DNA of 48,049 nucleotides from a virus: IMG/VR virus record IMGVR_UViG_3300045988_024716, one strand, 5' to 3'. Every line of letters begins with the position of its first letter. Within the stretch, counting starts at the first letter, position 1. This document shows, piece after piece, positions 56 to 48,049 of this stretch. A model generated the notes under the pieces. It saw only the letters and a list, made by a program, of their open reading frames with translations, was not told the origin of the DNA and ran no database searches. The position numbers and the translations under genes are program-made.

Positions 56-907
56 GAGGTCATCGGCGGCGAAAATATCACCGTGACATGGGGCGCCTCC
101 ACTGACTCGGACGGCAACCTCTCTGGCTACATCCTCGAGAAAAAGGTGGACTCCGGCACATGGACGCAGATCTACAAGGGGTCGTCCCGCACCTACTCCG
201 TGGCCGTGACCTACGGCTCCACCTCGATCCAGTTCCGCGTCAAGGCATACGACGCAGCCGGCGCCGAGTCCGCATATACCACGAGCGCCTCCAGAACGGT
301 CATCAACAACCGGGCGCCCGTCATCAGCGGCAGCGACGGAGACCTCGGCAGCTTCAGCAGCGCGTCCCCGACGCATGAGTACGTCGTGACCGACGCCGAC
401 GGCCATCAGGTCGACGTCGTCGAGTCTCTGGACGGCGTGGCGATCAAGAGCTACACCGTCACCCTCGGCCAGACCAACACCCTGAGCCTGACGGGCGACC
501 AGTTGCTCAAGCTGACCAACGGGCAGCACACCCTCACCATCAAGGCCACCGACGCCAAGGACGCCTCCGTCGTGAGGACGCTGACCTTCACCAAGGCCGT
601 CACCTCCGTCGAGTTTGTCCAGACCGTCGCCATGACGGCCGACGCCATGCCGACCAAGGCCCTCGTCAATATTCAGGGCAATTTCCCGGCCGGCTGCACG
701 CTTCAGGTCTGGATCTGCAACAACGGCAACGACGCGAGCCCGACATGGGAGGACATCACCACCAAGGCCCTGAACAGCCAGAAGCACTTCTTCACCAACG
801 CGACCAAGACCGCGAGCGACTGGGGCGTCAAGGTCAAGGTGAAGCTGCTCCGCGGCTCTGCAACCGAAACCTGCTACATCCAGTCGATCGGAGGTAACTT
901 TGCATGA
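1..907 (+). CDS. 3' part of the DGR target / tail-fibre-like protein (continuation of 47192..48049; 569 aa on the circle), with an FN3-like domain and a beta-rich C-terminus
   Basis: The frame of ORF 47..907 is open back to base 2 and matches the frame of the 47192 ORF across the 55-bp overlap. ITVTWGASTDSDGNLSGYILEKK..WTQIY..FRVKAYDAAGAES is a fibronectin-III-like pattern. Confidence 0.8.
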   Translation, partial: TVIYNQAPTAPSTINVPSEVIGGENITVTWGASTDSDGNLSGYILEKKVDSGTWTQIYKGSSRTYSVAVTYGSTSIQFRVKAYDAAGAESAYTTSASRTVINNRAPVISGSDGDLGSFSSASPTHEYVVTDADGHQVDVVESLDGVAIKSYTVTLGQTNTLSLTGDQLLKLTNGQHTLTIKATDAKDASVVRTLTFTKAVTSVEFVQTVAMTADAMPTKALVNIQGNFPAGCTLQVWICNNGNDASPTWEDITTKALNSQKHFFTNATKTASDWGVKVKVKLLRGSATETCYIQSIGGNFA

Positions 908-4508: not shown

Positions 4509-4540
4509 GAGTTACTCCTTCCTGATGGCTTTTGTTTTTA

Positions 4541-4609
4541 TTAGCGTTTAGCCATCTTTAGGATAATATTAGCACGGGAAAAATGGTAATGTCAACATGA
4601 CGTGGTCAT
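4541..4609 (+). promoter_or_regulatory. Candidate plus-strand promoter (TTAGCG-17-TAATAT) overlapping the divergent promoter, plus a 13-bp palindrome atgacgtggtcat (4597-4609)
   Basis: Hexamers at 4541-4546 and 4564-4569. The palindrome lies between the promoter and the RBS of the first XRE gene. Confidence 0.35.
4566..4595 (-). promoter_or_regulatory. Sigma-A-type promoter for the minus-strand membrane-protein gene
   Basis: On the minus strand: TTGACA (4590-4595), 18-nt spacer, TAATAT (4566-4571). Confidence 0.5.
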
Positions 4610-4911: not shown

Positions 4912-4940
4912 TTGACATTATAGAGCAAATGCTCTATAAT
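4912..4940 (+). promoter_or_regulatory. Consensus sigma-A promoter TTGACA-17-TATAAT with an embedded 11+11-bp perfect inverted repeat (operator)
   Basis: ttgaca at 4912-4917 and tataat at 4935-4940. The inverted repeat attatagagca-aa-tgctctataat spans 4917-4940. Confidence 0.7.
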
Positions 4941-5227: not shown

Positions 5228-5252
5228 GGGACGGCCGGCGGCCGTCCCTTTT
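5228..5252 (+). terminator. Intrinsic terminator
   Basis: Perfect 9-bp stem gggacggcc / ggccgtccc, loop ggc, then tttt. Confidence 0.7.
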
Positions 5253-6345
5253 GCCATTTTCAAGGAGGTACATCATGGGAGAACATTTCAGCCACTTAAC
5301 AATGACCAAGCGGATCCAGATCGACGCTTTTCTGCGTGCCGGCATGAAGCCGACCGAGATCGCCAAGGAGATCGGCGTCCATTATACCACCGTCTACCGG
5401 GAAATGAAGCGGGCCACCTATGAGCACCTCAACAGCGACCTGACCACCGAGATCCGCTACAACCCGGACGAGGCCGACCGGCTCTACCGGGAGCACCTGA
5501 AGGCAAAGGGCCCGGATCTGAAGCTCGGCAACGACTACGAGCTGGCCGACTACCTCGTCGAGAAGATCCGCGACGAGAAGTACAGCCCCGAGGCTGCCGT
5601 CGGCGAGGCCGAGGTCAACGGCTGGCGCTTCAAGACGAAGGTCTGCGCGAGCACCGTCTACAACTACATCCGCGGCGAAGTGTTCGGCGACGATCTCACG
5701 ACCGAAATGCTGCCGCAGGGCGGCAAGCGCAAGCCGGCCAGAAAAGCACCCGAGGGCACCGTCTCCCGAGCCCCGGCAGGCAAGAGCATCGAGCAGCGGC
5801 CGAAAGAAGTCGACACCCGCGAGACCTTCGGCCACTGGGAGATGGACAGCGTCGAAAGCTGCCAAGGCGTCAGCAATACCCTCCTCGTGCTGACTGAGCG
5901 CAAGACCCGGAAGGAGATCATCATCCCGCTGCGGGATAAGACGAGCGCCAGCGTCGTCCGGGCCCTGAACGGCATCGAGCGCAAAGTCGGCGCCCTGTTC
6001 CCGAAGATCTTCGCCAGCATCACGGTCGACAATGGCTGCGAGTTCGCCGACGCGGCCGGCATGGAAAAGAAACGCCGCGGCAAAGGCAAGCGCACCGAGA
6101 TCTACTACTGCCACCCGTACACGCCAAGCGAACGAGGCAGCAACGAGAACCAGAACGGCCTCATCAGGAGGCACATCCCGAAGGGCACCGACCTGAGCCA
6201 AGTCTCGCCCCGGGAAGTCAAACAGGTCGAGGAGTGGCTGAACAATTACCCCCGGAAAATGTTCGGTTTTCTGTGCTCCGAGCAGCTTTTCCGGGCTGAA
6301 ATCGCCGCTCTGCTGCCCTCGTGAAAAATTTTTTAGGCTTTTTTA
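5253..6345 (+). mobile_element. Possible IS30-family element or domesticated transposase locus; ends not defined
   Basis: Transposase gene only. I could not find terminal inverted repeats or target duplications by eye. Confidence 0.3.
5275..6324 (+). CDS. IS30-family DDE transposase / integrase-like recombinase
   Basis: N-terminal HTH (MKPTEIAKEIGVHYTTVYREMKR). Catalytic signature HWEMD ... ITVDNGCEF ... YYCHPYTPSERGSNENQNGLIRRHIPKGTDLS ... LNNYPRKMFG is typical of IS30 transposases. RBS aaggagg precedes ATG 5275. Confidence 0.9.
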   Translation: MGEHFSHLTMTKRIQIDAFLRAGMKPTEIAKEIGVHYTTVYREMKRATYEHLNSDLTTEIRYNPDEADRLYREHLKAKGPDLKLGNDYELADYLVEKIRDEKYSPEAAVGEAEVNGWRFKTKVCASTVYNYIRGEVFGDDLTTEMLPQGGKRKPARKAPEGTVSRAPAGKSIEQRPKEVDTRETFGHWEMDSVESCQGVSNTLLVLTERKTRKEIIIPLRDKTSASVVRALNGIERKVGALFPKIFASITVDNGCEFADAAGMEKKRRGKGKRTEIYYCHPYTPSERGSNENQNGLIRRHIPKGTDLSQVSPREVKQVEEWLNNYPRKMFGFLCSEQLFRAEIAALLPS

Positions 6346-6355
6346 GCATTTAATC

Positions 6356-6384
6356 TTGACAAAAGCGACCGTGTCCGCTAATAT
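6356..6384 (+). promoter_or_regulatory. Near-consensus promoter TTGACA-17-TAATAT bracketed by the inverted repeat gcatttaat (6346-6354) / attaaatgc (6383-6391)
   Basis: Hexamers and spacing counted directly. Confidence 0.6.
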
Positions 6385-6388
6385 TAAA

Positions 6389-6434
6389 TGCACAGAGACT
6401 CCAACCGAGTCCACTGTGCATTTTTTCTTTTTTA
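6389..6434 (+). terminator. Strong intrinsic terminator immediately downstream of the 6356 promoter
   Basis: Stem tgcacag..gactc / gagtc..ctgtgca (7+5 bp with a small internal loop), loop caacc, then ttttttctttttt. Confidence 0.6.
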
Positions 6435-6453
6435 TCGACCAAATGAGACGGAG

Positions 6454-6717
6454 GTGAGACCGACGGGAAAGTACCGCTACCTGACCTTCGAGGACAGGAA
6501 GAAGATCGAGGCGTGGCACCTGATCGGAGACCGGCCGGCTGACATCGCGGCCCGCCTCTCCGTCCACTACACCACGATCTACAAGGAGCTCCAGCGTGGT
6601 GCGACCGGCACGCTGGACAGGAACCAGCGCGAGGGGTACAGCGCAGAGCTCGCCGAGAGGCGACTCCGTGAAAACTTCAAGCGCAGGGGCAAGAAACGAG
6701 CAACGGCCGAGACATAA
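6454..6717 (+). CDS. Stand-alone HTH protein paralogous to the N-terminal DNA-binding domain of IS30 transposases
   Basis: YRYLTFEDRKKIEAWHLIGDRPADIAARLSVHYTTIYKELQRG..YSAELAERR parallels HLTMTKRIQIDAFLRAGMKPTEIAKEIGVHYTTVYREMKR of the 5275 gene. Start is uncertain (GTG 6454 or the upstream ATG 6388 in the track). Confidence 0.6.
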   Translation: MRPTGKYRYLTFEDRKKIEAWHLIGDRPADIAARLSVHYTTIYKELQRGATGTLDRNQREGYSAELAERRLRENFKRRGKKRATAET

Positions 6718-6918
6718 GCCAAGATCACCCGGCTCCGCGCCGGGCCGAAGAAAGGAGAGCCCACCATGAGAAACCACAACACGACCCCGACAGCGAAGAT
6801 GGACGAGCTGTGCACCCGCGCAGACTCCTGAGCGATCGGCGGCCGTGTTTTTGTTTTTCAGAGGGGCAGCCAAGAACCCCGGCACCCGCCGGGCCAATTA
6901 AGAAAGGAGCACACCACC

Positions 6919-7503
6919 ATGATGAAAAAAGAGTTTGAGGCCCTGACCGGCATCTTCCCGAGCGACGAGCTCTACAAGGCGATCGAGGCCGCGTACTACG
7001 ACTTCGCCGGCGACAAAACCGCATTTTGCAAGGCGTACAAGGCCAACAAGGACGGCATCGCCGAGAGGATCCAGCACGAGGTTGATATGGCGGCCTTCAA
7101 GGCAGCAGACAGCAGCAGCAAGGCGATCGCGCAGCGCGACACCGAGATCGAGAACCTGAAGAAGCAGCTCGAGCGCGAGCTGGAATGGCGGCCGCTGGAA
7201 GATAAGGACAACGTGAGCCAGTCCGAATACACCGAGCTCGCAACGGCCGGAGGCACGAAGCGCCTGACCGATGACGAGGCCAAGACGCTCCTCTACAACT
7301 GGTACGGCTTCGCCAAAGAGAAGATCATCATCCAGCACACCATCCCGACCTATGAAGTCAACCGTCACCGTCAGCTCCGTCAGGTCGGAGAAATCGACCG
7401 AGCGCCGCTCTACAACGCGACCGACTGGAATTACATCCGCTTCGACTGCGGATGCATGGCCTACGAGCTGCACAACGACACCCTGCGGCCGTTCATTCAT
7501 TGA
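6919..7503 (+). CDS. Early protein, unknown function (194 aa)
   Basis: Long ORF with RBS aaaggag and protein-like composition. No motif recognised. Confidence 0.6.
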   Translation: MMKKEFEALTGIFPSDELYKAIEAAYYDFAGDKTAFCKAYKANKDGIAERIQHEVDMAAFKAADSSSKAIAQRDTEIENLKKQLERELEWRPLEDKDNVSQSEYTELATAGGTKRLTDDEAKTLLYNWYGFAKEKIIIQHTIPTYEVNRHRQLRQVGEIDRAPLYNATDWNYIRFDCGCMAYELHNDTLRPFIH

Positions 7504-7520
7504 GAAGGAGGTAATCGGAA

Positions 7521-8066
7521 ATGAAGCAAGGCATCACCATCGAAAGAACCTGCGATCTGCACGACAGGCCGATCGTCAGGATCGCCAAGCGCCGCGGGCG
7601 CCTGTCTCTGGAGGAGGTCGGCGACCTCCTCCGGCACGAAGGCTTCGGCGAGTGGTGGGGGCACTACGCCATCGTCCTCAACTGTACCGAGTCCACCATA
7701 GGCGGCAACGGCCTGTTCGACTTCGACGAGCCAAAGGGTGACACCCTTGACCTCTACAAAATAGACGAGGGCGAGGAGTGCCCTATCTGCGGACAGTTCA
7801 CTCCTCCCTATGTGTACTGCCCCAACTGCGGATCGAAGTGGAGCGATATAGACCAAAACGCCGAGACGCTGCTGGCGTCCATGAGAAACGAAACGGAGCG
7901 GAGCATCCGAGAGGCAAAAACACAAGCCGGCGCGTCGGCATGGTACTGGACTCAGATCGGAGCGATCGACATGGCCCGACAGCTCGGGTTTATAACGGAG
8001 GAACGCAGGCATCAGCTCTACGAGGAAATGAAGCCTCTGAAGCCCGTGGAGGTGCAGCATGAATAA
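7521..8066 (+). CDS. Early protein with a zinc-ribbon motif (181 aa)
   Basis: CPICGQFTPPYVYCPNCG (CxxC-x10-CxxC). RBS is gaaggagg. Confidence 0.6.
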   Translation: MKQGITIERTCDLHDRPIVRIAKRRGRLSLEEVGDLLRHEGFGEWWGHYAIVLNCTESTIGGNGLFDFDEPKGDTLDLYKIDEGEECPICGQFTPPYVYCPNCGSKWSDIDQNAETLLASMRNETERSIREAKTQAGASAWYWTQIGAIDMARQLGFITEERRHQLYEEMKPLKPVEVQHE

Positions 8067-8337
8067 AGCCAACGCCATCAAGCAAGAGGCCGCCCTCCTC
8101 TGCCGGGGATCCTTCCCGGCGACTCTCGAGGAAAACGGCGAGCCCTGCGTTGTGGAGGCCAGCATCTACCGGCTCAACGCTGTGGCTGCTGCCGGCTTCA
8201 TGCTGGACGGCCCGGAGAGCCTACTCCTCCACCTCGGCCTCAGTGAGACCGACACCTACATCACCAAGCACGAGATCGACGACCTTGTCACGGTCGTCAG
8301 GATCCTCAGAAAGGAGGCAGACACATGGCAGCATTGA
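8059..8337 (+). CDS. Early protein, unknown function (92 aa)
   Basis: Start overlaps the previous stop. Coding-like composition. Confidence 0.5.
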   Translation: MNKANAIKQEAALLCRGSFPATLEENGEPCVVEASIYRLNAVAAAGFMLDGPESLLLHLGLSETDTYITKHEIDDLVTVVRILRKEADTWQH

Positions 8338-9182
8338 GAGACATCGCCCGAGACGTCGCAGAGGAGATCCGCGACGGCATCGGCTGGGTGATCGTGTACC
8401 GCACCGGCCGCTCGTGGAGCGCCCTGACCCTCTGGAGCGATCTCGGGAGCGGCGAGTGGGAAACCGACGACCTCAACGACGCCATCGGGATCCTGAAAAC
8501 CGACCCGGACGCCGTCGTCCTGAACGGCTACTACTGCGGCCACTTCGGCGAGGGAATGACCATCGACGAGATCGCCGCCGGGATCCGCTGGCACTATGAA
8601 GGCGGCCACAACCGCCTCGCGGACTATTACGAAGTCGAGCAAGGGCTGAACGCCATCGAGGAGGCCCGCAAGACTGCCGAGGCCGCTGGCCTCCCATTCT
8701 GCGAACGTCTGGCCGAGGGCCCGGACGACGAGCTTGACCCGTACACCTACGACGGGAGCATGAGCCTCGACGACTACGAGGCCATGCAGGACGCCAGAAC
8801 AGCCCGGGAGGAGCTCGCTGCCGTCGTGGCAGCACAGGCCCCGGGCCTGCCTGCTGAGAAGCTGGACGAGCTGGCCGCTGCGGCTGCCGGCCTACATATC
8901 AGCCCGGAAACCATGCAGCAGATCCTCGAAGCCTTCGGCCGGGTCGCCGAGGCTGTCAAGGAAATGGCCCGCGCTCTGATGGAGGCGTTCAAGCCGATCA
9001 TCGACTGGGCCAAGAAAACGGTCGAGCGCTTCATGGAGGCGCTGGCCGCCGGCATCGTCCCGAGGAAGTGGCTGCACCTCGCCAAGCACGCCAAGAAGGC
9101 CAGAACCCGCAAGAAGTACCGCAACCGCATCAGGCGGGCCGTGTTCGCCGCTCTGGCCGCGGAAGGAGGTGGGAGCTCATGA
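8325..9182 (+). CDS. Early protein, unknown function (285 aa), basic C-terminal tail
   Basis: RBS aaaggagg. Acidic body, then KHAKKARTRKKYRNRIRR. Confidence 0.6.
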   Translation: MAALRDIARDVAEEIRDGIGWVIVYRTGRSWSALTLWSDLGSGEWETDDLNDAIGILKTDPDAVVLNGYYCGHFGEGMTIDEIAAGIRWHYEGGHNRLADYYEVEQGLNAIEEARKTAEAAGLPFCERLAEGPDDELDPYTYDGSMSLDDYEAMQDARTAREELAAVVAAQAPGLPAEKLDELAAAAAGLHISPETMQQILEAFGRVAEAVKEMARALMEAFKPIIDWAKKTVERFMEALAAGIVPRKWLHLAKHAKKARTRKKYRNRIRRAVFAALAAEGGGSS

Positions 9183-9358
9183 CCGCCAAATGCGTCGGCT
9201 GCGGGCTCGACTGGAACGTCAGCATCTACCAGAAGATCCCCCGCACCGGCTACATCTGCCCGCACTGTGAGAGCCGGATCCGCGCCGGCGAACCGCTGAA
9301 GAATATACAGGCCAGCCCCAAGGGCCGGCCGCCAAGAACGAAAGGAGCAAAACCATGA
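9179..9358 (+). CDS. Small zinc-ribbon protein (59 aa)
   Basis: MTAKCVGCGLDWNV...YICPHCESRI (CxxC ... CxxC). ATGA overlaps at both ends. Confidence 0.5.
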   Translation: MTAKCVGCGLDWNVSIYQKIPRTGYICPHCESRIRAGEPLKNIQASPKGRPPRTKGAKP

Positions 9359-10044
9359 AAAAAGCACTCAAGACCGCGCCCCGCGGCACCGCCTTCAACT
9401 ATGCCGGCCAGCGCTGGGTCGTGCTGGAACATAACGCCACCGGCACCCTCTGCCTGACTGAGAAGATCGTCGAGGATCGCGCCTTCGACGACGGCAACTG
9501 CAACGACTTCAGCAAGTCCAGCAGCCTGCGCTACCTGAACGGCCCCTTCCTCGACACCCTGATCGACGCCGCCGGCTGCTCCAGCGCCTTCCTGACGAGT
9601 GAGCTCGACCTGACGACCGACGACGGTCTGAAGGACTACGGCACCTGCAACGTCACAATCTTCCTGCTGACGGTCGACCAGTACCGGCGCAACCGCGACG
9701 TGATCCCCAACGCAGACGACTGGTGGTGGCTGTCCACGGCCTTCAGCACGGCCTCCAATGGGTACGAGCATAGCGCCCGCGGCGTCCGCGCCGATGGCGC
9801 GCTGGACTGGAACTACGCCTGCTACGGCGGCGGCGGCCTGCGCCCCGCTTGCTATCTGGACTCCGATCTCCTGATCTCCTTCGACGAGCAGGACGTGACC
9901 GCAGAGCAGGCCGGCGACATCGTCAAGGAGCTGATCGAGAGCTTCGGCGGCAGCTTCGCCACCGAGGAGCAGCTCAGAGCTGCGGCCTCCTTCATGCTCG
10001 GCACGCTGCGAGCCACCAGAGAACAGGAGGCGGCCCATGAGTAA
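9355..10044 (+). CDS. Second DGR target protein (229 aa) carrying VR2; DUF6273/DUF1566-like (presumed C-type-lectin-fold) ligand-binding protein
   Basis: Contains VR2. FLLTVDQYRRN...WWWLSTA...GLRPACYLDSDLLIS parallels IFPLSCTEVG...YYWLRDA...GLRPACNLSSDLLVS of the RT-adjacent target. Confidence 0.85.
   Translation: MKKALKTAPRGTAFNYAGQRWVVLEHNATGTLCLTEKIVEDRAFDDGNCNDFSKSSSLRYLNGPFLDTLIDAAGCSSAFLTSELDLTTDDGLKDYGTCNVTIFLLTVDQYRRNRDVIPNADDWWWLSTAFSTASNGYEHSARGVRADGALDWNYACYGGGGLRPACYLDSDLLISFDEQDVTAEQAGDIVKELIESFGGSFATEEQLRAAASFMLGTLRATREQEAAHE
9772..9850 (+). repeat. DGR variable region VR2 (matches TR 45789-45867)
   Basis: 79-bp alignment with 17 mismatches, all at TR adenines. In frame with ORF 9355. 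Shares the A-free 3' element ggcctgcgccccgctt. Confidence 0.9.
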
Positions 10045-10747
10045 CCTGACCGCCCTTCTGAACAAGTACAAGGCCCTCGTGATCTTCGACACCGAGACCA
10101 GTGGCCTCGACTTCGACAAGGATCAGATCATCGAGCTGGCGGCCCTGCGCGTGGAGCGCACGGCCTCCGGCGGGCTGAGGATCGCCGGCAAGATGGACAC
10201 CTTCATCAAGCTGCCCGAGGGCGAGACGCTGCCGGAGAACATCGTCAGCCTGACCGGCATCACCGACGCCCTCCTCCAGACCGAGGGCGTGCAGCCGGCC
10301 AAGGCAGCCAGCCAGATCGCCAAGCTCATGCAGCCGGGCCCCGTCCTGATGATCGCCCACAACGCACAGTTCGACGCCTGCTTTCTTCGCGGCCTGCTGC
10401 GCGGCGCCAAGGTCGGCCGGATCGACTGGCTGGACAGCCTGACGGTCTACAAAGACCGCCGGCCCTACCCTCATAAGCTCGCCAACGCGATCCTTGCCTA
10501 CGAGCTCGAGGACAAGGTGCAGAACAGCCATCGAGCGATCGACGACGTGCTGGCCCTGTTCGAGGTGATGAAGGCGATGGACGACGAGCGTGACGACCTC
10601 GCTGCCTACGTCAACCTGTTCGGCTACAACCCGAAGTACGGCGTCAGCGGCCGCAGGATCGTCGGCGTCAGATATGAGCCGCAGGGCTTCAACAAAGCCA
10701 TGACGCGGCCGGAACAAACCCTCCCGGCCCGCATGGCCCGGAGGTGA
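10037..10747 (+). CDS. DnaQ-like 3'-5' exonuclease (DEDDh, Pol III epsilon family)
   Basis: VIFDTETSGL (ExoI), IAHNAQFDACFL (ExoII), HRAIDDVLALFEV (ExoIII). Confidence 0.85.
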   Translation: MSNLTALLNKYKALVIFDTETSGLDFDKDQIIELAALRVERTASGGLRIAGKMDTFIKLPEGETLPENIVSLTGITDALLQTEGVQPAKAASQIAKLMQPGPVLMIAHNAQFDACFLRGLLRGAKVGRIDWLDSLTVYKDRRPYPHKLANAILAYELEDKVQNSHRAIDDVLALFEVMKAMDDERDDLAAYVNLFGYNPKYGVSGRRIVGVRYEPQGFNKAMTRPEQTLPARMARR

Positions 10748-10752
10748 GGACA

Positions 10753-11028
10753 ATGAGCAAGAGCTCGCCGATCACAATCACGAGCGAGGAGCTGCGTGAG
10801 CGCGTCGAGGAGTACCTCGACCGCTGGATCCCGGACGACGTCTGGAACCGCAGCGAACCCTACGCCCGCCGCAAGCTCGACCTCTGCCGGGAACGGGAGC
10901 CGGAGGTCGAATACTACAACAACGAGTACCTCGTACTGCTGGCAGCGGACACCGTCAGAGAGACGGAGTTCAGCGACTTCACCCTCGCGGACTACGCCGC
11001 GAAGATGGCAGCCAGAGCTACGAGCTGA
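10753..11028 (+). CDS. Hypothetical protein (91 aa)
   Basis: ATG 10753 after gaggtgagg. Coding-like composition. Confidence 0.5.
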   Translation: MSKSSPITITSEELRERVEEYLDRWIPDDVWNRSEPYARRKLDLCREREPEVEYYNNEYLVLLAADTVRETEFSDFTLADYAAKMAARATS

Positions 11029-11040
11029 GAGGAGAAAACA

Positions 11041-11715
11041 ATGGCAACAGTAACAAAAAGGGCCGCCTGCTGCAATCAGGCGACCCCTGCGAGAAGAACA
11101 GGCCAGCCAGCCGTCGGATCTCGCTCGTCGTACAGTATAGCACGAAAGAAGCGCCGCGCCAAGTACCTGCGCCGGCAAATCGCCTGCCTGCTGCTCGCTG
11201 CTGCCGCCCTGACCGCCCTGATCTACGTCGTGGTCGGGGCGCTGACCCCGGACAAGCCCGGGACGGCCACAGTGGTGACGCCGCGGCCGGTCATCGAAAC
11301 GCAGACCCCAATCCAGACGCCGGCAGCAGAACCGACACCGGCCCCACGCTTCGAGCTGAGCGCAGCAGAGCGCGACGTCGTCGAGCGCGTGGTCATGGCC
11401 GAAGCCGGCGGCGAGTCCTTCGAGGGGCAAATGTTGGTCGCACAGTGCATCCTCAACGCCTGCGAAAAGACCGGCACGCAGCCCTCCGAGGTCGTCGTGA
11501 CGTTCAAGTATGCACCGGCCCGCCCGGAGCCGACCGACAGCGTCAGGGAGGCCGTGGCGGCAGTATTTGACGCCGGCGAGTTCATCACCGACGAGCCGGT
11601 CATGTTCTTCTACAACCCCGCAAAAGTCACAAGCACATGGCACGAGAGCCAGACCTTCGTCATCGAGGTCGGCGGCCATCGCTTTTTCGCAGAAAGGAGC
11701 CAAGACAATGAGTGA
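11041..11715 (+). CDS. Membrane-anchored cell-wall hydrolase, SleB/CwlJ (Hydrolase_2)-like
   Basis: Basic N-terminus, TM (IACLLLAAAALTALIYVVVGAL), Pro/Thr linker, then ERDVVERVVMAEAGGESFEGQMLVAQCILNA....FFYNP, typical of the SleB catalytic domain. Confidence 0.75.
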   Translation: MATVTKRAACCNQATPARRTGQPAVGSRSSYSIARKKRRAKYLRRQIACLLLAAAALTALIYVVVGALTPDKPGTATVVTPRPVIETQTPIQTPAAEPTPAPRFELSAAERDVVERVVMAEAGGESFEGQMLVAQCILNACEKTGTQPSEVVVTFKYAPARPEPTDSVREAVAAVFDAGEFITDEPVMFFYNPAKVTSTWHESQTFVIEVGGHRFFAERSQDNE

Positions 11716-12349
11716 TAAAACCAACGCGGCCATCGCCGCAGAACAGCAGGCAGCAGCTACCGAGGAAAGCTCGGCAGCTCAGCAGGCCGAGGCCCTGCCG
11801 GCTGCCACCCTCGAGGAGCTCGAGGAGTTTGACATCGGCAGCGTCGCCGATCAGGAGGCCCCGCGCTTCAGGATCACGGACGACCGATGCGCAGACTGGG
11901 CCGTCCGCAAGATAGCCGAGGAGCGTGCGGAGTACGACCGCTTGAAAGAGCTGGCCGACCAGCAGGTCGCAGCCATCGCCGAGAAGATGGAGGCAGCCAA
12001 GCGCCGGCTCGAGAACGGCACGTCCTACTTGACGAGCTGCCTCGCCGAGTATTTCCGCACCGTACCCCACAAGACCACCAAGACGACCGAGAAATACCGC
12101 CTCCTCTCCGGCACCCTGACCCTCAAGAAGGGCGGCACCAAGGCAACGCCGGACGACGCGAAGCTGGTGCCGTGGCTGAAGGCCAACGGCTTCAGCGACT
12201 ACGTCAAGACCGAGGAGAGCGCCAAGTGGGGCGAGCTGAAGAAGGGGCTCACCTTCGTCGGCAGCGTCGCCACTATCACCGAGACCGGCGAGATCGTCGA
12301 AGGCATCACCGTCACGGAGCAGCCCGACATCTTCAAGGTCGACTTGTAA
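11708..12349 (+). CDS. Recombination-associated protein, Gam (host-nuclease inhibitor) / Gp157-like
   Basis: Ala/Glu-rich N-terminus. FRITDDRCADWAVRKIAEERAEYDRLKE...RLLSGTLTLKKG pattern. Positioned directly upstream of the ERF gene. Family assignment is tentative. Confidence 0.45.
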   Translation: MSDKTNAAIAAEQQAAATEESSAAQQAEALPAATLEELEEFDIGSVADQEAPRFRITDDRCADWAVRKIAEERAEYDRLKELADQQVAAIAEKMEAAKRRLENGTSYLTSCLAEYFRTVPHKTTKTTEKYRLLSGTLTLKKGGTKATPDDAKLVPWLKANGFSDYVKTEESAKWGELKKGLTFVGSVATITETGEIVEGITVTEQPDIFKVDL

Positions 12350-12361
12350 AGGAGGCCCACC

Positions 12362-13174
12362 ATGACAACCGCAGCAGAAAAGAAAACCACAGCGGCAGCC
12401 AAGACCGCGGAGGCCCTGCCTGACGTGGCCTCCTGCCTCTCTCTCCGGCAGAAGCTCGTCGAAATGAGGAAAGCCTGCCCGGAGATCCTGAAGAAGAAGC
12501 ACAGCGACGGCGTCAGCTACTCCTACGCCAAGATCTACGACGTGTGGGAGAAGATCACCCCGATCATGAACCAGCTCGGCGTCGACTTCGACGTCATCGC
12601 TGAGACGGCCACCAAGCACTCGGACAACGGCGACCCGCTGTACTGGATCACCATGCAGACCAAGACCCGCAACGGCGACAAGCTCATGTTCCTCTACGAG
12701 GCCGACCTGACGATCCGCTGGACGAACCTCGACAACGAGGACGAGACCATCGAGGCCGTGATCCACTCGATCGGCTGGAACGATGACCCGGCCAAGGCCA
12801 AGGGCGCAGCCCACACCTACGCCCTGAAATACTACCTTTTCGAGAAGTTCACGGTCGACCAAGGCGAGGACGACCCCGACAACAACGACTTCAGCGCACA
12901 GGGCAAGGGCTCCGGCAGCGCAGGAGCCTCCAGACAGGGCCAGCAGCGTCAGGGACAGGGCCAGAGCTCCGGCCGACTCAGTGACGCGCAACTCGGCCGC
13001 CTCTACAAGAAGGCAGAGGCCGCCGGCATGAGCCGCGAGCGCACCGACGCCCGGATCCTCGAGAAGTACAAGAAGCAGGATCCGGCCACCCTGACCCGTC
13101 AGGAATACGACGAGATCTGCAACTCGCTCGACGCCGCAGCGGCGCAGCATAACCAGCAAGGAGGTCAAGCCTAA
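12362..13174 (+). CDS. ERF-family single-strand annealing protein
   Basis: SYSYAKIYDVWEKITPIMNQLG...KGAAHTYALKYYLFEKF resembles the ERF core. Followed by SSB. Confidence 0.8.
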   Translation: MTTAAEKKTTAAAKTAEALPDVASCLSLRQKLVEMRKACPEILKKKHSDGVSYSYAKIYDVWEKITPIMNQLGVDFDVIAETATKHSDNGDPLYWITMQTKTRNGDKLMFLYEADLTIRWTNLDNEDETIEAVIHSIGWNDDPAKAKGAAHTYALKYYLFEKFTVDQGEDDPDNNDFSAQGKGSGSAGASRQGQQRQGQGQSSGRLSDAQLGRLYKKAEAAGMSRERTDARILEKYKKQDPATLTRQEYDEICNSLDAAAAQHNQQGGQA

Positions 13175-13608
13175 TGTATAACCACACAGGACTTCAGGGG
13201 CGCCTCACGGCCACCCCTGAGCTCAGATACACCCCAAGCGGCACCGCGATCACGAGCTTCACGCTCGCCAGCGACACCGGCCGCAAGACCAAGGACGGCA
13301 ACAGGATCACCAATTTCATCGACTGCGTGGCGTGGCGCCAGCAGGCCGAGTTCGCCTGCAAGTACCTCACCAAGGGCCGCCTCGTCATCGTCGACGGAGA
13401 GCTGACCAGCCGAACCTATGAGGACAAGGACGGGAACCGCCGCAAGGCCACGGAGATCACCGTCAGGAACATCAACTTCAGCGACAGCAAGAAAGACGGC
13501 CAGAGCGCGGGCTCGCAGCCGCAGGGCGACGACTTCGCGGATCCCGGGTACGCAGACGCCTCCGGCTTCACGGAGGTAGACGGCGATGACAGCGATCTCC
13601 CGTTTTAG
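13174..13608 (+). CDS. ssb: Single-stranded DNA-binding protein
   Basis: GRLTATPELRYTPSGTAITSFTLA...FIDCVAWRQQAEFACKYLTKGRLVIVDGEL..RTYEDKDGN.R is an OB-fold pattern. The acidic tail ends in DDSDLPF. Confidence 0.9.
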   Translation: MYNHTGLQGRLTATPELRYTPSGTAITSFTLASDTGRKTKDGNRITNFIDCVAWRQQAEFACKYLTKGRLVIVDGELTSRTYEDKDGNRRKATEITVRNINFSDSKKDGQSAGSQPQGDDFADPGYADASGFTEVDGDDSDLPF

Positions 13609-13618
13609 AACGACCGAC

Positions 13619-13639
13619 GGCCGACCAAAGGCCGACCAA
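13619..13639 (+). repeat. Tandem direct repeat ggccgaccaa-a-ggccgaccaa (11-bp period) upstream of the replication gene
   Basis: Exact 10-mers at 13619-13628 and 13630-13639 in a T-poor intergenic region. Function not established. Confidence 0.3.
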
Positions 13640-13673
13640 TTAAGAGCCAAGGACACGCGGCCACAAAGAGGAG

Positions 13674-14552
13674 GTGACGACCGTGGCATGGATCCAAGTA
13701 CATCAGACACTCAAAGATCACCGCAAGCTGTTCGACGCTGCTGACGAGCTTGAGATCTCGCCCCCGCACATGATGGGCCTGCTGATCTCCTTCTGGCTAT
13801 GGGCCCTCGACAATGCTCCCACGGGCAAGCTCGACGGCATCACCCACCGCATGATCGCCCGGGCTGCTCAGTATGAAGGAGACGCCGAAAAGCTGGCCGC
13901 GGCGCTGATCCGGGCCGGCTGGCTGGACGAAAACGAGGACGGCGAGCTCGAGATCCACGACTGGTACGAGTACGCCGGCAAACTGATCGACCAGCGGAAG
14001 GCCGAAAAAGAGCGATCGCAGCGTCGGCGCGACGCGGCCGCAGCAGCCGCAGGAGAAAACGCAGACGACCAACAAACGGCCAGTGGTCAGCCGAAGAAAG
14101 GCCGCAAGAAAGCCGCAGGCAGAGTAGACCAGAGTAGAGTAGATAAGAGTACAGATGGTACTACTCCCCCTTCCTCCTCTGACGAGGGGGCTGACGAGGG
14201 CAAAAAGGACGCCATCGAGGTCAGGTTTGCAGAGTTCTGGAGCGCATACCCGAAGAAAGTCGCCAAACAGTACGCCCTCAAGGCATGGAAACGGCTGCGG
14301 CCGGACGCCGAGCTGCACGAGAAGATCATGCAGGCCGTGAACGCTCAGAAGCGGAGCGAACAGTGGCGCCGAGACAACGGCCGCTACATACCGAACCCGG
14401 CCACATGGCTGAACGGCGGCCAATGGGACAACGAGCTCGAGGAGGTGACGACAGATGCAGAAAATCGGGGAGATCCTGAACGCAGCAGCGCAGCCGATGC
14501 CGGCCGCGACTACTCGAAGGGCTTCAAGACAGCAGACGACCTCGACGACTGA
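13674..14552 (+). CDS. Phage replisome organizer / replication initiation protein
   Basis: N-terminal W.QV...L.D.RKL......PHMMGLLISFWLWALDNAPTGKL pattern. C-terminal FWSAYPKKVAKQYALKAWKRL...YIPNPATWLNGGQW motif is common in phage replication proteins. The true start may be GTG 13683. Confidence 0.6.
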   Translation: MTTVAWIQVHQTLKDHRKLFDAADELEISPPHMMGLLISFWLWALDNAPTGKLDGITHRMIARAAQYEGDAEKLAAALIRAGWLDENEDGELEIHDWYEYAGKLIDQRKAEKERSQRRRDAAAAAAGENADDQQTASGQPKKGRKKAAGRVDQSRVDKSTDGTTPPSSSDEGADEGKKDAIEVRFAEFWSAYPKKVAKQYALKAWKRLRPDAELHEKIMQAVNAQKRSEQWRRDNGRYIPNPATWLNGGQWDNELEEVTTDAENRGDPERSSAADAGRDYSKGFKTADDLDD

Positions 14553-43290: not shown

Positions 43291-43292
43291 CC

Positions 43293-45353: not shown

Positions 45354-45740
45354 ATGCAGGTCATCACCGACGCCAAGGAGCTGCGAAAGCACACATACAA
45401 GAAGGTCAGAAACACCAACATCTTCCCGAAAAAGGACAGGCTGCTCGCCGACAAAATGTTCGACGAGGCAGCCGATCTGGTGGCTGACCTGATGGAGGCC
45501 AACGACCACCTCCTGACCGACCCGGAGGAGCGGGAGCTGCGCTTCAGGGCGCAGCGGTCGGCTCTGCGTAACTGCCGCAAGCTGATCGACAACATCGAGT
45601 TCGCCCACGAGAACCTCCCGGGCGTGACCGATGACGCCTTCGCCTTCTGGTCAAGACTGGCGGCCGGGGTCAAGAACCAGACCGCCGCATGGTACAAAAA
45701 AGATAGAGAAAGGGCTGCCAAGCTGGTCACAAAGACCTAA
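45354..45740 (+). CDS. avd: DGR accessory variability determinant (Avd)-like four-helix-bundle protein
   Basis: 128 aa, basic, helical. IFPKKDRLLADKMFDEAADLVADLMEAN...R......L..L..L...IEFA.E......F..W......V.N...AWYKKDR matches the Avd/four-helix-bundle pattern. Lies immediately upstream of TR and RT. Confidence 0.75.
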   Translation: MQVITDAKELRKHTYKKVRNTNIFPKKDRLLADKMFDEAADLVADLMEANDHLLTDPEERELRFRAQRSALRNCRKLIDNIEFAHENLPGVTDDAFAFWSRLAAGVKNQTAAWYKKDRERAAKLVTKT

Positions 45741-45772: not shown

Positions 45773-45867
45773 GTGCCGGGTCGGCCAACAACGCCCGCAA
45801 CGTCAACACCGATGGCACGCTGAACAGGAACAACGCCTACAACGGCAACAACGGCCTGCGCCCCGCT
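45773..45867 (+). repeat. DGR template repeat (TR): 25 adenines including 10 AAC codons
   Basis: 95-bp repeat of VR1 and 79-bp repeat of VR2. All differences are at TR adenines. Located between avd and RT. Confidence 0.92.
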
Positions 45868-46059
45868 TCGATGGATCGCTCGACTTATTAACCGGCCGAG
45901 AGGCCGGCGAACACAATGCACCATCATCCAAGGAAGGCATATCCCTCCCGCAGCCGCGGCCGTCTGACCGGCCGGGTCATGGGTAAACACAGGACTGCTG
46001 ATGCTGCCGGCGGCGCACGCAAAGCGTGGCCGGGGCTATCCACGGCAGAGATTTTTAAC

Positions 46060-47280
46060 ATGGAGAACCAAGTCAACAGCTTCGTCGCCCTTTACAAAGC
46101 GTACCAGAAAACACGCTGCGGAAAGCGCGACAACCCGACCGCCATGCGCTACCGCATGGAGGCCATCGAGCGCACCGCTGACCTCTCGGATCGGCTTCAG
46201 AGGCGGGACTATACCTTCGGCCCCTACTACCCCTTCAAGGTGTACGAGCCCAAGGAGCGCCTCGTCCTCGCCATTGACTTCGAGGGGAAGGTCGTGCAGC
46301 ACTCCCTCTGTGACAACGTCCTCGAGCCCTGCTTCTCCCGGCGCTTCATCCGGGACAACTACGCAGGACAGATCGGCAAAGGCACGCACGACGGCCTCGA
46401 CCGTCTGGCTGACGCCATGCGCCACTATTTCTTCAGCCGCAAGGCAGCAGACGAAGCAGCCCGCAGAGCTGCCGGCCTGCCATACCGGCCGATGGAGGAA
46501 TGGGACTACGCGGACGGCTGGGTGCTCAAGGGAGATTTTTCAAAGTTCTTTTATACACTCGTCCACGCCATCTGCTTCGAGAAAGCAAAGAAGGCGCTCG
46601 CCTTCCTGTCCGATCCCGAGCTCCGGGACTTCGTCGAGTGGCTGCTGTGGCTCATAATCGACAGCACGCCAGATCCGGGCATCCCGATCGGCAACCAGAG
46701 CAGCCAGCTCCTCGCGCTGCTATATCTGGACGACTTCGACCACTGGCTGCGCGACGACCTCGGCCTCGTCTACGGCCGATACATGGACGACTTCTACATC
46801 ATCAGCAGCGACAAGCTGCTGCTCCGCAGGATCCTGAAGGAGATCGAGGACTACATCAAGCCCCTCGGCCTGCGGCTGAACAACAAGACGCAGATCTTCC
46901 CGCTGAAGAACGGCATCGACTTCCTCGGTTTTCACACCTACCTCACGAGCACGGGCAAGGTGGTCAGAAAAGTGAGGGCCAAGAGCATCGACAACATGAA
47001 GCGGAAGATCCGCAAGTACCGCGGCCTCGTGGACTCCGGCAGGATGACGCTCGAGAGCGTCCTCCAGTCCTACGCGAGCTGGTGCGGCCATATTTCCCAC
47101 GGGAACACCTACCACCTGCGGCAGAACATGGACGCCTACTTCTTCGGCTACTTCCCGGAGCTGAGGCCAACACCGAAAGGAGAAAACACACATGGCCCAA
47201 AAACTGAGCAACCTCGCAAACAAGTCGAAGGTGAAGTTCGGCACCATTCACGGCAAGCCGATCATCTGGCTCGTGGCTGA
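46060..47280 (+). CDS. DGR reverse transcriptase
   Basis: YKAYQKTRCGKR....MRY......L...L....Y.FGPYYPFKVYEPKERLVLAIDFEGKVVQHSL ... GIPIGNQSSQLLALLYL ... GRYMDDFYIIS (YxDD box) ... GLRLN.KTQIF....GIDFLGF. The maximal ORF starts at 45916; ATG 46060 fits the conserved N-terminus. Confidence 0.92.
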   Translation: MENQVNSFVALYKAYQKTRCGKRDNPTAMRYRMEAIERTADLSDRLQRRDYTFGPYYPFKVYEPKERLVLAIDFEGKVVQHSLCDNVLEPCFSRRFIRDNYAGQIGKGTHDGLDRLADAMRHYFFSRKAADEAARRAAGLPYRPMEEWDYADGWVLKGDFSKFFYTLVHAICFEKAKKALAFLSDPELRDFVEWLLWLIIDSTPDPGIPIGNQSSQLLALLYLDDFDHWLRDDLGLVYGRYMDDFYIISSDKLLLRRILKEIEDYIKPLGLRLNNKTQIFPLKNGIDFLGFHTYLTSTGKVVRKVRAKSIDNMKRKIRKYRGLVDSGRMTLESVLQSYASWCGHISHGNTYHLRQNMDAYFFGYFPELRPTPKGENTHGPKTEQPRKQVEGEVRHHSRQADHLARG

Positions 47281-48049
47281 CAAGAACCACGCGGGCTACC
47301 CTTCCAACAGCGTGACACTGGTCACGAACCAGATCATCAAAATGCTGTGCTTCGACGCGAAGGAAAGCGCGAACAGCAACAGCGACCGCAGAAGCTACGG
47401 CAACAACAGGTACATCTACTCGAACCTGCGCCAGTGGCTCAACAGCGCGGCCGCTGCCGGCGCGTGGTACACCGCACAGCACTCCGCTGATGCAGCGCCT
47501 ACCTCCGGCAACGTCTGGAACGGCTACAACGCCTACGACGGCCTCGCCGGCTTCCTGAACGCTTTCACGGCCGACGAACGTGCGGCCCTGCTCGATACCA
47601 CCATCACGGTCGGCAAGAGCTCCACTGACGGCGGCGGGACGGAGACCTGCACCGACAAGATCTTCCCGCTGTCCTGCACTGAGGTCGGCCTCTCCGGCGA
47701 CCATACCTGCGGCAGCAAGCTGGCGATCTTCAGCGACAACAGCAGCCGCATCGCAACCGTGACGGCTGAGTGCGTCGCCAACTCCAACTACAACAGCAAC
47801 CCGGCCGCAAATGCCGCGTGGTACTACTGGCTGCGCGACGCCTATGCCGGGTCGGCCCTCAACGCCCGCCTCGTCGTCACCGATGGCACGCTGTACAGGG
47901 ACGGCGCCTACTACGGCATCGACGGCCTGCGCCCCGCTTGTAATCTTTCCTCTGATCTCCTTGTCTCCGACTCCACCGACTCGGACGGCTGCTGCACGGT
48001 CATCTACAATCAGGCGCCCACCGCGCCGAGCACCATCAACGTGCCGAGC
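47192..48049 (+). CDS. 5' part of the DGR target / tail-fibre-like protein carrying VR1 (continues at 1..907 on the circle)
   Basis: ATG 47192 after aaaggag. No stop before the window end. DKIFPLSCTEVG..., AWYYWLRDAYAGSALNARLVVTDGTLYRDGAYYGIDGLRPAC. Overlaps the RT 3' end by 89 nt. Confidence 0.85.
   Translation, partial: MAQKLSNLANKSKVKFGTIHGKPIIWLVADKNHAGYPSNSVTLVTNQIIKMLCFDAKESANSNSDRRSYGNNRYIYSNLRQWLNSAAAAGAWYTAQHSADAAPTSGNVWNGYNAYDGLAGFLNAFTADERAALLDTTITVGKSSTDGGGTETCTDKIFPLSCTEVGLSGDHTCGSKLAIFSDNSSRIATVTAECVANSNYNSNPAANAAWYYWLRDAYAGSALNARLVVTDGTLYRDGAYYGIDGLRPACNLSSDLLVSDSTDSDGCCTVIYNQAPTAPSTINVPS
47845..47939 (+). repeat. DGR variable region VR1 (matches TR 45773-45867)
   Basis: 95-bp alignment with 13 mismatches, all at TR adenines (for example aac->ctc, gtc, tac, gac, ggc, atc). 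Confidence 0.92.
47995..48049. repeat. Terminal overlap, second copy of bases 1-55
   Basis: Identical 55-mer. Confidence 0.9.

Follow-up and report, generated by a model that had tools for sequence, protein, structure and literature searches.

The locus examined here raises the question of whether a DGR that adjoins one large target gene also diversifies a second, small gene in the early region of the same phage genome and, if so, what kind of protein is being diversified there. The window, i.e. the whole stretch of 48,049 nucleotides that was analysed (IMG/VR virus record IMGVR_UViG_3300045988_024716), is a circular assembly with a terminal overlap of 55 bp, so that it is in fact 47,994 bp long. 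Its DGR has the gene order Avd-TR-RT-target, and the RT gene runs 89 nt into the start of the large target gene that follows (Table 1). This large target crosses the circular junction to position 907, with a reading frame that is unbroken over the 55-bp overlap, and its DUF6273 domain is presumably exposed on the virion. Scans of the window for Rfam families and tRNAs gave no matches.

Table 1. Features of the window discussed in the text, with the evidence for each
Feature	Position	Strand	Evidence or remark
Sigma-70 consensus promoter-like site (TTGACA-17-TATAAT, perfect)	4912..4940	+	upstream of Cro-like gene; consensus match only
Small zinc-ribbon-like ORF	9068..9358	+	phrog_6107, E 6e-21, residues 38-96
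Small DGR target gene ('tgt2' type), 229 aa, DUF6273	9355..10044	+	Pfam PF19789, E 1.1e-8; phrog_9958 over full length, E 4.6e-65
VR2, remote variable repeat	9772..9850	+	aligns without gaps with TR 45790-45868 (79 bp); TR adenines at all 16 mismatches
A-free GC-rich 3' element GGCCTGCGCCCCGCTT, candidate IMH (initiation-of-mutagenic-homing) site	9835..9850	+	common to TR, VR1 and VR2; putative function by analogy with BPP-1
DnaQ-like 3'-5' exonuclease gene	10037..10747	+	Pfam RNase_T, E 3e-20; phrog_192
Avd accessory protein gene	45354..45740	+	phrog_3206 'Avd protein of DGR', E 4e-21; no Pfam match
TR (template repeat)	45774..45868	+	VR2 matches only 45790-45868
DGR reverse transcriptase (RT) gene	46060..47280	+	Pfam RVT_1, E 1.2e-13; phrog_1423, E 5e-118
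Large target gene, 5' part (tentaclin/Hoc-like, 569 aa)	47192..48049	+	DUF6273, E 8e-39; phrog_10993 'Hoc-like head decoration', E 8e-119
VR1, RT-adjacent variable repeat	47845..47939	+	95-bp TR match; 13/13 mismatches at TR adenines
Large target gene, 3' part (FN3/Ig-like repeats and C-terminal domain)	56..907	+	phrog_10993 profile positions 275-555, E 3.5e-111

A second, remote repeat of the same DGR

Ungapped computational alignment of VR2 with the TR gave 16 mismatches in 79 bp, spread over 12 codons and consisting of 12 A>G, three A>T and one A>C substitutions, with no change at any other base. Since only 23 of the 79 positions are adenines, the probability of such a distribution arising by chance is 1.1e-11; for the 13 mismatches of VR1 the corresponding value is 1.5e-9. 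The sequence-only reading had found the same TR partner, although its coordinates (45789-45867) were shifted by one position, and it had counted 17 mismatches, one too many; its statements that all of them lie at TR adenines and that non-adenine changes are lacking are borne out by the computed alignment. The 16 positions 5' of 9772 contain nine non-adenine mismatches to the TR, and homology is lost there; VR2 therefore employs 79 of the 95 TR bases used by VR1. At the other end, GGCCTGCGCCCCGCTT occurs in exactly three exact copies in the window (starting at 9835, 45853 and 47924), one in each repeat as had been proposed, and directly past its 3' end the TR diverges from both VRs. A BPP-1-like hairpin or cruciform was sought 3' of VR1 and VR2, where no inverted repeat was found within 40 nt of either, so that such a structure is not confirmed as part of homing in this phage.

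The repeat lies in frame in the ORF at 9355-10044, as expected from the earlier reading. In this frame each of the 25 TR adenines occupies the first or second position of a codon, and the VR2-matched part of the TR contains nine AAC codons; as a consequence of this arrangement stop codons cannot arise. The distance between VR2 and the TR, recomputed as 35.9 kb in window coordinates, and the position of VR2 at 10.5 kb downstream of the RT round the circle both agree with the initial estimates of about 36 kb and 10.5 kb. These results establish VR2 as a true, distant second VR of this DGR.

Variation of VR2 among related phages

In 81 homologous genes, the entropy is 1.51 bits at the TR-adenine sites of VR2, compared to 0.063 bits at its other sites and 0.26 bits in the rest of the gene. 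All four bases are found at the TR-adenine sites, while the non-adenine positions are essentially invariant. Some gene pairs have no differences at all over about 623 nt outside VR2 and 12 to 18 differences inside it, and 40 of the 46 pairs with at most three differences outside VR2 have at least five inside. Among close relatives VR2 takes 52-68% of all differences; in a prophage of a cultured Flavonifractor, 13 of 19 differences lie in VR2, and all 13 are at TR adenines. Clusters at 90% identity contain between 1,062 and 23,439 distinct members. One methodological point concerns the related phage nd4, whose VR2 was missed by a strict adenine-only scan because of a single non-adenine mismatch (G>T), and was found by a relaxed alignment.

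Such a pattern could in principle result from recombination or gene conversion between the paralogous VRs, or from assembly cross-talk, instead of retrohoming of TR-derived cDNA. The long identical stretches shared by VR1, VR2 and TR could aid recombination or mislead assemblers, and in contig L046 a motif resembling VR1 ('ACNLSS') closely follows VR2 on its 3' side. Against this, VR1 and VR2 of one genome differ from each other at many adenine sites (see also PMC10743442), the VR2 flanks are tgt2-specific in 80 of the 81 genes, and conversion between two copies cannot yield adenine sites with all four bases next to essentially invariant non-adenine sites. This origin is therefore highly improbable. 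The same L046 contig had also been considered as a case of tgt2 adjoining the DGR, but represents an approximately 30-kb deletion variant or a misassembly.

Even less probable is that VR2 is a relic or a chance likeness, i.e. an old target or VR1 paralog that no longer receives cDNA: the loss of the 5' 16 bases, leaving 79 of 95 TR bases matched, the non-adenine mismatch in nd4 VR2 and the 15 of 54 nd4-like genomes that have only one recognisable target (Baykov et al., PMC10743442) would fit such a view, but the 16/16 mismatches at adenines (chance 1e-11), the TR-adenine-confined variation over 81 genes, the 12-18 VR2 differences between genes identical over 623 nt, and the same VR2 pattern in prophages of cultured genomes have effectively refuted it, unless the contigs are assembly chimeras of VR1 and VR2. 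A frozen VR2 had been named in advance as evidence for a relic, and the opposite was found, also between otherwise identical genes. That VR2 is an active DGR target is thus nearly certain.

The small target protein and its genetic setting

The small target scores 35.5 bits against Pfam PF19789, compared to a cut-off of 23.5 bits. It is an acidic protein (pI 4.5) in which neither a signal peptide nor a TM segment was detected (maximum KD19 of 0.89). BLASTP aligns it with the RT-adjacent target with an E-value of 3e-9 and 40% identity over the VR-proximal 75 residues; both proteins belong to Pfam DUF6273, and the large target also matches phrog_9958. The lack of export signals and the paralogy of the two targets, both noted on first inspection, are thereby confirmed. 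An AF2 model built from 51 close homologs alone had a pLDDT of only 42, which rose to 78.6 when two divergent groups were added. The latter model consists of one globular domain followed by C-terminal helices of low pLDDT, and VR2 is predicted to encode a beta-hairpin at residues 140-154. A Foldseek search of the model against the PDB gave no significant match to Mtd or to a C-lectin, so that its C-lec fold is putative. The only solved structure with the fold of the small target is 9qa6, the N-terminal domain of an IgA peptidase of T. ramosa. The cysteines, inspected as a possible clue to disulfides and an extracellular location, vary between lineages and are for that reason uninformative on an extracellular role.

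The gene calls and profile matches agree with the initial placement of tgt2 in an early/replication module, upstream of the genes for a DnaQ exonuclease, ERF and SSB. Its start at 9355 overlaps the stop of the zinc-ribbon-like ORF (ATGA, as read from the sequence), and its stop overlaps the start of the exonuclease gene by 8 nt (10037-10044). The order after tgt2 in the window is DnaQ-like exonuclease, Gam, ERF and SSB. In 75 of 76 related loci the exonuclease gene is found directly downstream of tgt2, and Gam, ERF and SSB genes follow in 42-44 of 45 loci. The perfect promoter-like site at 4912-4940 is a candidate for the early rightward promoter of the operon that contains tgt2; a weaker match is found at 6356-6384, and no strong terminator-like sites were identified on the + strand from about 6266 to 14989. 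The small target lies in the early module in all lineages examined, four divergent ones in total, with early-module contexts in nd12-like contigs, in Toutatis/Lelie and in Brigit. Gene position alone, however, proves neither the timing of expression nor absence from the virion.

The window phage is a gut phage related to nd4. The protein shares 68-70% amino acid identity and a common synteny with nd4_tgt2, and the module is 81% identical in nucleotide sequence. The TR differs from that of nd4 at 2 of 95 bases, so that the window represents a distinct relative. Even closer copies (93-96% amino acid identity) occur in contigs of IMG/VR and in assembled genomes, among them those of the cultured Flavonifractor sp. 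AGMB03687, whose contig NZ_JADKZI010000008.1 carries a 96% identical tgt2, and Oscillospiraceae bacterium 44-34. As in nd4 and nd12, a tentaclin gene is located beside the RT gene, and the VR corresponds to a beta-hairpin in the 3' part of the DUF6273/C-lec domain.

For this phage group, at least three papers already document small DUF6273 genes with a remote second VR. A two-target DGR, with 'tentaclin' and a small 'tgt2', was described in nd4/nd12 phages by Baykov et al. 2023 (PMC10743442), and DGRs of the same kind were published for Lelie/CP11 (PMC11792537) and for Toutatisvirus (bioRxiv 10.1101/2024.10.15.618418). The concept of a non-structural second target tied to phage-host conflict was put forward for Quimbyvirus (Benler et al. 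2021, PMC8008677) and for four induced double-VR gut prophage species (PMC12629997, Nature 2025). The sequence-only reading had implied that both the second remote target and the idea of its non-structural nature were new; neither is. What is added here is the placement in an early operon across four lineages, including the VR2 of Brigit, and the fusion to DUF3310 in the nd12 lineage that is described below. FP_Brigit gp06 carries a VR2 of this two-target architecture, which is not mentioned in the accessible part of Cornuault 2018.

The proteins of Lelie/CP11, Toutatisvirus and Brigit (gp06) resemble the window protein in being small, single-domain DUF6273 proteins encoded in the early region, with a remote VR that shares its TR with a large target of Hoc-like type. 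They differ from it in their low amino acid identity (about 30%) and shorter C-terminal tail. In Toutatisvirus the small target is a core gene, present in 98.8% of genomes. Its neighbours in Toutatis are prohibitin-like and regulator genes, and those of gp06 in Brigit are genes for a PD-(D/E)XK exonuclease and RecT, in both cases unlike the window.

Possible roles of the diversified small protein

By analogy with BPP-1, TR RNA (45774-45868) would be reverse-transcribed by the RT with Avd, with misincorporation opposite adenines. The resulting cDNA would take the place of VR1 in the neighbouring Hoc-like 'tentaclin' gene or, 10.5 kb further on, of VR2 in the gene at 9355-10044, with the common 3' element GGCCTGCGCCCCGCTT and a 79-bp stretch of homology upstream of it presumably guiding homing. 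The small product, of the published 'tgt2' type, has one DUF6273 (putatively C-lectin-like) domain followed by an acidic helical tail, and its VR-encoded beta-hairpin (residues ~140-165) may form the variable binding surface. We propose that the protein is made early inside the infected cell, and that it may bind a variable ligand within that cell or once lysis has occurred.

The locus is probably best explained as the active second target of a single DGR, with its product favoured somewhat as a non-virion early protein over a virion receptor-binding protein. If an active DGR target is accepted, the available sequence data would give a non-virion early protein an even chance or slightly better; it appears somewhat likelier because of the early/recombination operon, the absence of export signals, and a DUF3310 fusion in the nd12 lineage.

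The main alternative, with a substantial but less than even chance, places the small protein in the virion. It would then be a receptor-binding or adhesin subunit of Mtd-like type, encoded outside the late module and diversified by the same DGR mechanism, and might dock on the tail or capsid by its C-terminal helices and follow host-surface or mucosal ligands. Several observations are consistent with this. The small target and the ligand-binding domain of the large, Hoc-like target are paralogs. Cellular DUF6273 proteins are extracellular, as exemplified by the parent protein of 9qa6, which is secreted and anchored to the cell wall (PMC12402451). Some structural neighbours of the small target in BFVD are annotated as receptor-binding or tail proteins. 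The C-terminal helices are predicted to be amphipathic and could serve attachment, and Tyr, Ser and Asp are enriched at the variable positions of VR2, as in binding sites generally. It is also the hypothesis of the authors of PMC10743442 and bioRxiv 10.1101/2024.10.15.618418; a receptor-binding role is a guess in all three papers on this protein type, and Baykov et al., who proposed it as Mtd-like, did not discuss the early-operon location. The literature searched contains neither proteomic data on virions nor transcriptomic data for small DUF6273 targets.

Comparison with Mtd of BPP-1 bears directly on this alternative. In both systems the VR encodes the C-terminal end of a domain of C-lectin type (putative in the small target), the TR is rich in AAC codons, and the GC-rich 3' element contains no A. 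Mtd, however, is a trimer of 381-residue subunits at the tail-fibre tip and has beta-prism and beta-sandwich domains, and its gene lies beside the DGR in the late region, whereas the window gene lies in an early operon and encodes 229 residues in a single domain plus helices. The attachment domains of Mtd are absent from the small target (PMC10743442; AF2 model), and Foldseek gave no significant match to Mtd. The small gene is a DGR target of the DUF6273 family and of the small 'tgt2' type, which is marked by a single domain in a protein of about 210-300 aa and a VR at the C-terminal end of that domain, but it lacks both the attachment domains and the late-module location beside the DGR that characterize an Mtd-like receptor-binding protein. 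A location in the virion is further opposed by the position of the gene inside an early/recombination operon, with overlaps at both start and stop, in four divergent lineages, by the early-protein domain DUF3310 of the nd12 orthologs, and by the conventional tail-fibre genes that adjoin the DGR (42160-44848), which are separate and undiversified.

In the nd12 lineage, the DUF3310 domain connects the small target with known early proteins. In the nd12 ortholog the full domain is present at the start of the protein (E 2.5e-16), and the fusion is widespread within the nd12 lineage, confined to it, and encoded among early genes. Neither the window protein nor any of the six reading frames of the window and of nd4 contains DUF3310, and no credible match was obtained for a stand-alone DUF3310 gene that could provide a Rosetta-stone link (tblastn against the window, nd4, Toutatis, Lelie and Brigit; custom HMM against the window and nd4). 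Known DUF3310 proteins include the AbiV-interacting SaV, which is early and intracellular (PMC8306868), and the cytotoxic early protein gp51 of Adephagia (PMC11373665). SaV of lactococcal phages thus has both this domain and an early gene position in common with the nd12-lineage orthologs; it differs in not being DGR-diversified, and the window protein differs from SaV in lacking DUF3310.

For a non-virion early protein, one tentative role is that of a cytoplasmic 'adaptive binder' which would track a variable intracellular partner with the help of the same TR that serves a capsid or tail adhesin. Conceivable partners, suggested with equal reserve, are a host defence or abortive-infection protein, the target of a nuclease inhibitor, or a protein of a competing phage. 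An adaptive binder would explain the placement of the gene beside exonuclease and recombination genes, with its start and stop overlaps, in four lineages, its core status in Toutatisvirus, and the DUF3310 fusion in nd12. The conserved early-operon placement and the fusion to the SaV-type DUF3310 domain in nd12 lend circumstantial support to an intracellular binder that follows host or defence proteins.

Published precedents are Quimbyvirus and the four double-VR prophage species, in which one target of the DGR likewise lies near structural genes and the other, a C-lec target, is distal. Their second targets are found among non-structural genes of counter-defence type, from which the authors infer a role in phage-host conflict, the idea also raised in the sequence-only reading. 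The genes around these second targets are of methyltransferase and defence-island type, compared to a recombination/replication operon in the window; moreover, Quimbyvirus and the named double-VR phages are phages of Bacteroidota, and the nearest relatives of the window phage are prophages of Oscillospiraceae.

In the present system, one TR serves two very different proteins, the smaller of which is encoded with early recombination/replication genes in every lineage examined. If the small target acts intracellularly, DGRs of gut phages would diversify functions in host takeover or counter-defence besides adsorption, and an adaptive binder would be the first functional case of mutagenic retrohoming acting on an intracellular phage protein of this kind. 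Near-identical prophages in the cultured Flavonifractor sp. AGMB03687 and Oscillospiraceae bacterium 44-34, together with the related phage Lelie, which is inducible, make these proteins accessible to experiment.

The template repeat and its two copies

The remote variable repeat VR2, which lies inside a small gene of the tgt2 type, aligns without gaps to bases 45790-45868 of the template repeat (TR) of the DGR. The alignment has 16 mismatches in 12 codons (A>G 12, A>T 3, A>C 1), with a probability of 1.1e-11 that all would land on adenines, which make up 23 of the 79 positions, and the TR adenines occupy codon positions 1 and 2 of the ORF. The sequence-only reading had placed the pairing one base lower on the TR (45789-45867) and had counted 17 mismatches; the ungapped alignment corrects both figures, while the VR2 coordinates and the restriction to adenines stand, with no non-A change within the 79 bp. 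The match covers only 79 of the 95 TR bases, those at the 3' end, and the 16 bases upstream of VR2 show nine non-A mismatches to the TR. The shared A-free element noticed earlier is indeed present in three copies (GGCCTGCGCCCCGCTT), at the 3' ends of TR, VR1 and VR2, and directly past this 16-mer the TR departs from both VRs.

A custom simple DGR scan of the window found two TR/VR pairs and no others, those of VR2 and VR1, the latter in the large RT-adjacent target ('tentaclin'). The genome assembled as a circle, with a 55-bp terminal overlap leaving 47,994 bp, and has a GC content of 62.7%; as originally estimated, 35.9 kb of window sequence separate VR2 from the TR, and going round the circle it is 10.5 kb from the RT. 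The large target carries DUF6273 at its N-terminus (E 8e-39) and FN3/Ig-like repeats after it, and the start of its gene is overlapped for 89 nt (47192-47280) by the RT ORF in a different frame. The VR2 observation stands, and support for the DGR mechanism is good.

Features of the DGR, its targets and neighbouring genes
Feature	Coordinates	Details
Minus-strand gene	3747-4508 (-)	253 aa; phrog_10292 and other PHROGs of unknown function
Promoter-like site preceding it	4595-4566	
Perfect sigma-70 consensus site	4912-4940	5' of Cro-like gene; consensus match only
Transposase-like gene	5251-6324 (+)	IS30 family
Small HTH-like ORF	6388-6717 (+)	
LPD15 gene	8325-9182 (+)	285 aa; E 2.4e-37
Small target (tgt2)	9355-10044	229 aa; DUF6273, E 1.1e-8 (over curated cut-off); phrog_9958 (function unknown), full-length, E 4.6e-65
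VR2	9772-9850	79 bp; 16/16 mismatches at TR A
Conventional tail-fibre genes	42160-44848	adjoin DGR; not diversified
Avd	45354-45740	phrog_3206, E 4e-21
TR	45774-45868	95 bp
RT	46060-47280	RVT_1; phrog_1423, E 5e-118
Large RT-adjacent target	47192, across circular junction, to 907	569 aa; phrog_10993 'Hoc-like head decoration'
VR1	47845-47939	95 bp; 13/13 mismatches at TR A

Variation of VR2 among related phages

A search for related loci yielded 80 viral contigs encoding the small protein. For the five nearest contigs whose gene has the same length (93-94% aa identity), VR2 makes up 11% of the gene but accounts for 52-68% of all nucleotide differences, mostly at TR-adenine sites. When 81 genes are aligned by codon, the columns at the 23 TR-adenine positions average 1.51 bits of entropy. 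The remaining 56 positions of VR2 average 0.063 bits, and the gene outside VR2 averages 0.26 bits (Mann-Whitney p 6e-14 and 3e-17 for the two comparisons). Forty-six gene pairs differ at no more than three positions outside VR2; inside it, 40 of these show five or more differences, and several pairs combine 12-18 differences inside with none over about 623 nt outside. A prophage of the cultured Flavonifractor sp. AGMB03687 (96% aa) has 13 of its 19 gene differences in VR2, all 13 at TR adenines. The possibility that VR2 is a frozen relic, raised with the original observation, is contradicted by these figures; judged by sequence comparison, VR2 is active. Public data give a separate indication of hypervariability: the small-target clusters at 90% identity (P0003, P0007, P0122, P0123, P0241) hold 1,062 to 23,439 distinct sequences each.

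The first AAC-templated codon of VR2 (9772-9774) is nearly fixed by lineage, being Ser in window-like and Leu in nd4-like genes, with Pro, Arg and Ile rare. This suggests that cDNA integration would usually resolve 3' of this codon, giving a diversification gradient at the 5' homology boundary.

In one related contig (IMGVR_UViG_3300014955_000038, 3038-13330), tgt2, DnaQ, Hydrolase_2, Gam and an ERF stub of 44 aa are joined to a tail-fibre fragment, also of 44 aa, with Avd-TR-RT-tentaclin-amidase after it. Both DGR targets are kept, replication and structural genes amounting to about 30 kb are absent, and a VR1-like 'ACNLSS' motif lies directly 3' of VR2. The contig represents a deletion variant or a defective prophage, or else was misassembled.

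Gene neighbourhood and published precedents

At its 5' end tgt2 shares an ATGA with a zinc-ribbon ORF, its start overlapping the stop of that upstream ORF, and at its 3' end it overlaps the first 8 nt of a DnaQ-like exonuclease gene. By consensus matches only, no strong plus-strand terminator-like site follows the sigma-70 site until about 14989. The early context described from the sequence holds across relatives: in nd4-like contigs the exonuclease gene directly follows tgt2 in 75 of the 76 with room, Gam, ERF and SSB lie downstream in 42-44 of 45 loci, and an LPD15-domain gene lies upstream in 59 of 72. In the window, LPD15 ('large polyvalent-protein-associated domain 15') is encoded two genes upstream of tgt2; LPD-type domains are tied to phage and plasmid polyvalent proteins of intergenomic conflict. 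In nd12-like contigs the small target lies between Hydrolase_2 and methyltransferase/DUF4406/VRR_NUC/HNH genes, an early or DNA-metabolism module, and likewise in such a module in Toutatis and Lelie. In FP_Brigit (NC_047909.1) it is gp06 (3948-4559), directly past the HTH regulators of the lysogeny switch and ahead of two exonucleases and RecT, with a VR (4371-4445) matching TR 45409-45483, 9/9 mismatches at A; in the part of Cornuault 2018 consulted, the Hoc-like target is the only one given for Brigit.

The transposase-like gene and the HTH-like ORF after it occupy the lysogeny-module position between lysis and early genes, as such a pair does in the unrelated phage nd12 (25320-26357). No integrase was recognised in the window, and the transposase-like gene may encode the integration enzyme rather than mark an IS insertion. 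The minus-strand gene, the sole sizeable one near the lysis/early boundary, could be lysogeny-expressed (moron or immunity).

Among annotated genomes, Phage nd4 (OR777945; 81% nt over the early module, 68% aa for the small protein) comes closest; it has the same two-target DGR and a TR differing at 2 of 95 bases. Such DGRs, with tentaclin (tgt1) and a small DUF6273/C-lec tgt2, were described for nd4 and nd12, and 39 of 54 nd4-like genomes carry both targets (PMC10743442). The arrangement is already known for the nd4-like group, of which the window is one more member. Contrary to what the sequence-only reading implied, the idea of an apparently non-structural remote second target is not new either. 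Such a target, taken to imply a part in conflict between phage and host, was proposed for Quimbyvirus (PMC8008677) and again for four species of induced gut prophages (PMC12629997). A distance of 17,480 nt separates the second VR gene of Toutatisvirus from the TR, and the gene is core in 98.8% of genomes (bioRxiv 10.1101/2024.10.15.618418). The large survey by Roux et al. was unable to detect remote targets (PMC8144416).

The small target protein and its possible role

Around the VR, the small and large targets are paralogs (BLASTP E 3e-9), as the sequence-only reading had it, and its view that the small protein lacks a signal peptide or TM segment agrees with the absence of any hydrophobic segment (maximum KD19 0.89); the protein is acidic (pI 4.5). 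An AlphaFold2 model with three divergent homolog groups as input (pLDDT 78.6, pTM 0.69) predicts a single globular domain (residues 1-175, mostly pLDDT 80-96), followed by two low-confidence helices. The VR2-encoded residues would form a beta-hairpin (strands 140-144 and 150-154); a hairpin location was also reported for the tgt2 VR (Baykov et al. 2023, PMC10743442). Structure comparison gave no significant match to Mtd or classical C-lectins; BFVD neighbours are phage DUF6273 proteins, and the sole significant PDB neighbour is 9qa6 (E 7.5e-7), from the IgA peptidase that Thomasclavelia ramosa secretes; it is the N-terminal DUF6273 domain of that enzyme, and IgA cleavage does not require it (PMC12402451).

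We consider a non-virion role for the small protein about an even prospect, if anything slightly favoured. It is encoded in an early operon across lineages, with start and stop codons overlapping its neighbours, and undiversified conventional tail-fibre genes stand beside the DGR. Moreover, nd12-lineage orthologs commonly carry a full N-terminal DUF3310 (E 2.5e-16) fused to the diversified DUF6273 (nd12, 31285-32178; relatives P0121-P0232), both Pfam matches being found in roughly half of the relatives among the matches listed. The DUF3310 domain is that of the lactococcal phage protein SaV, which is transcribed early and interacts with the abortive-infection protein AbiV (PMC8306868); Adephagia gp51, a cytotoxic early protein, also has it (PMC11373665). 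The published guess is instead an Mtd-like, receptor-binding virion component, and the DUF3310 motif of the nd12 small target was interpreted there as an interface through which it might attach (Baykov et al. 2023, PMC10743442). This is favoured by the extracellular location of the solved relative, by the presumably virion-exposed paralogous domain of the large target and by the C-terminal helices, which could dock; the DUF3310 link, furthermore, is not seen in the window lineage. The more specific reading, an intracellular binder tracking defence or host proteins, is tentative and rather unlikely; this functional idea of the sequence-only reading has some circumstantial support and is one that we infer.

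What makes the finding useful is less a discovery than a question, now well defined, that experiments can address. The host is probably Flavonifractor or another member of the Oscillospiraceae, since near-identical tgt2 loci lie on long contigs of cultured-isolate genomes. Copies are present in Flavonifractor sp. AGMB03687 (NZ_JADKZI010000008.1, 72267-92953) and, at 94% aa, in Oscillospiraceae bacterium 44-34, and such isolates offer strains for induction and virion proteomics of the small target.
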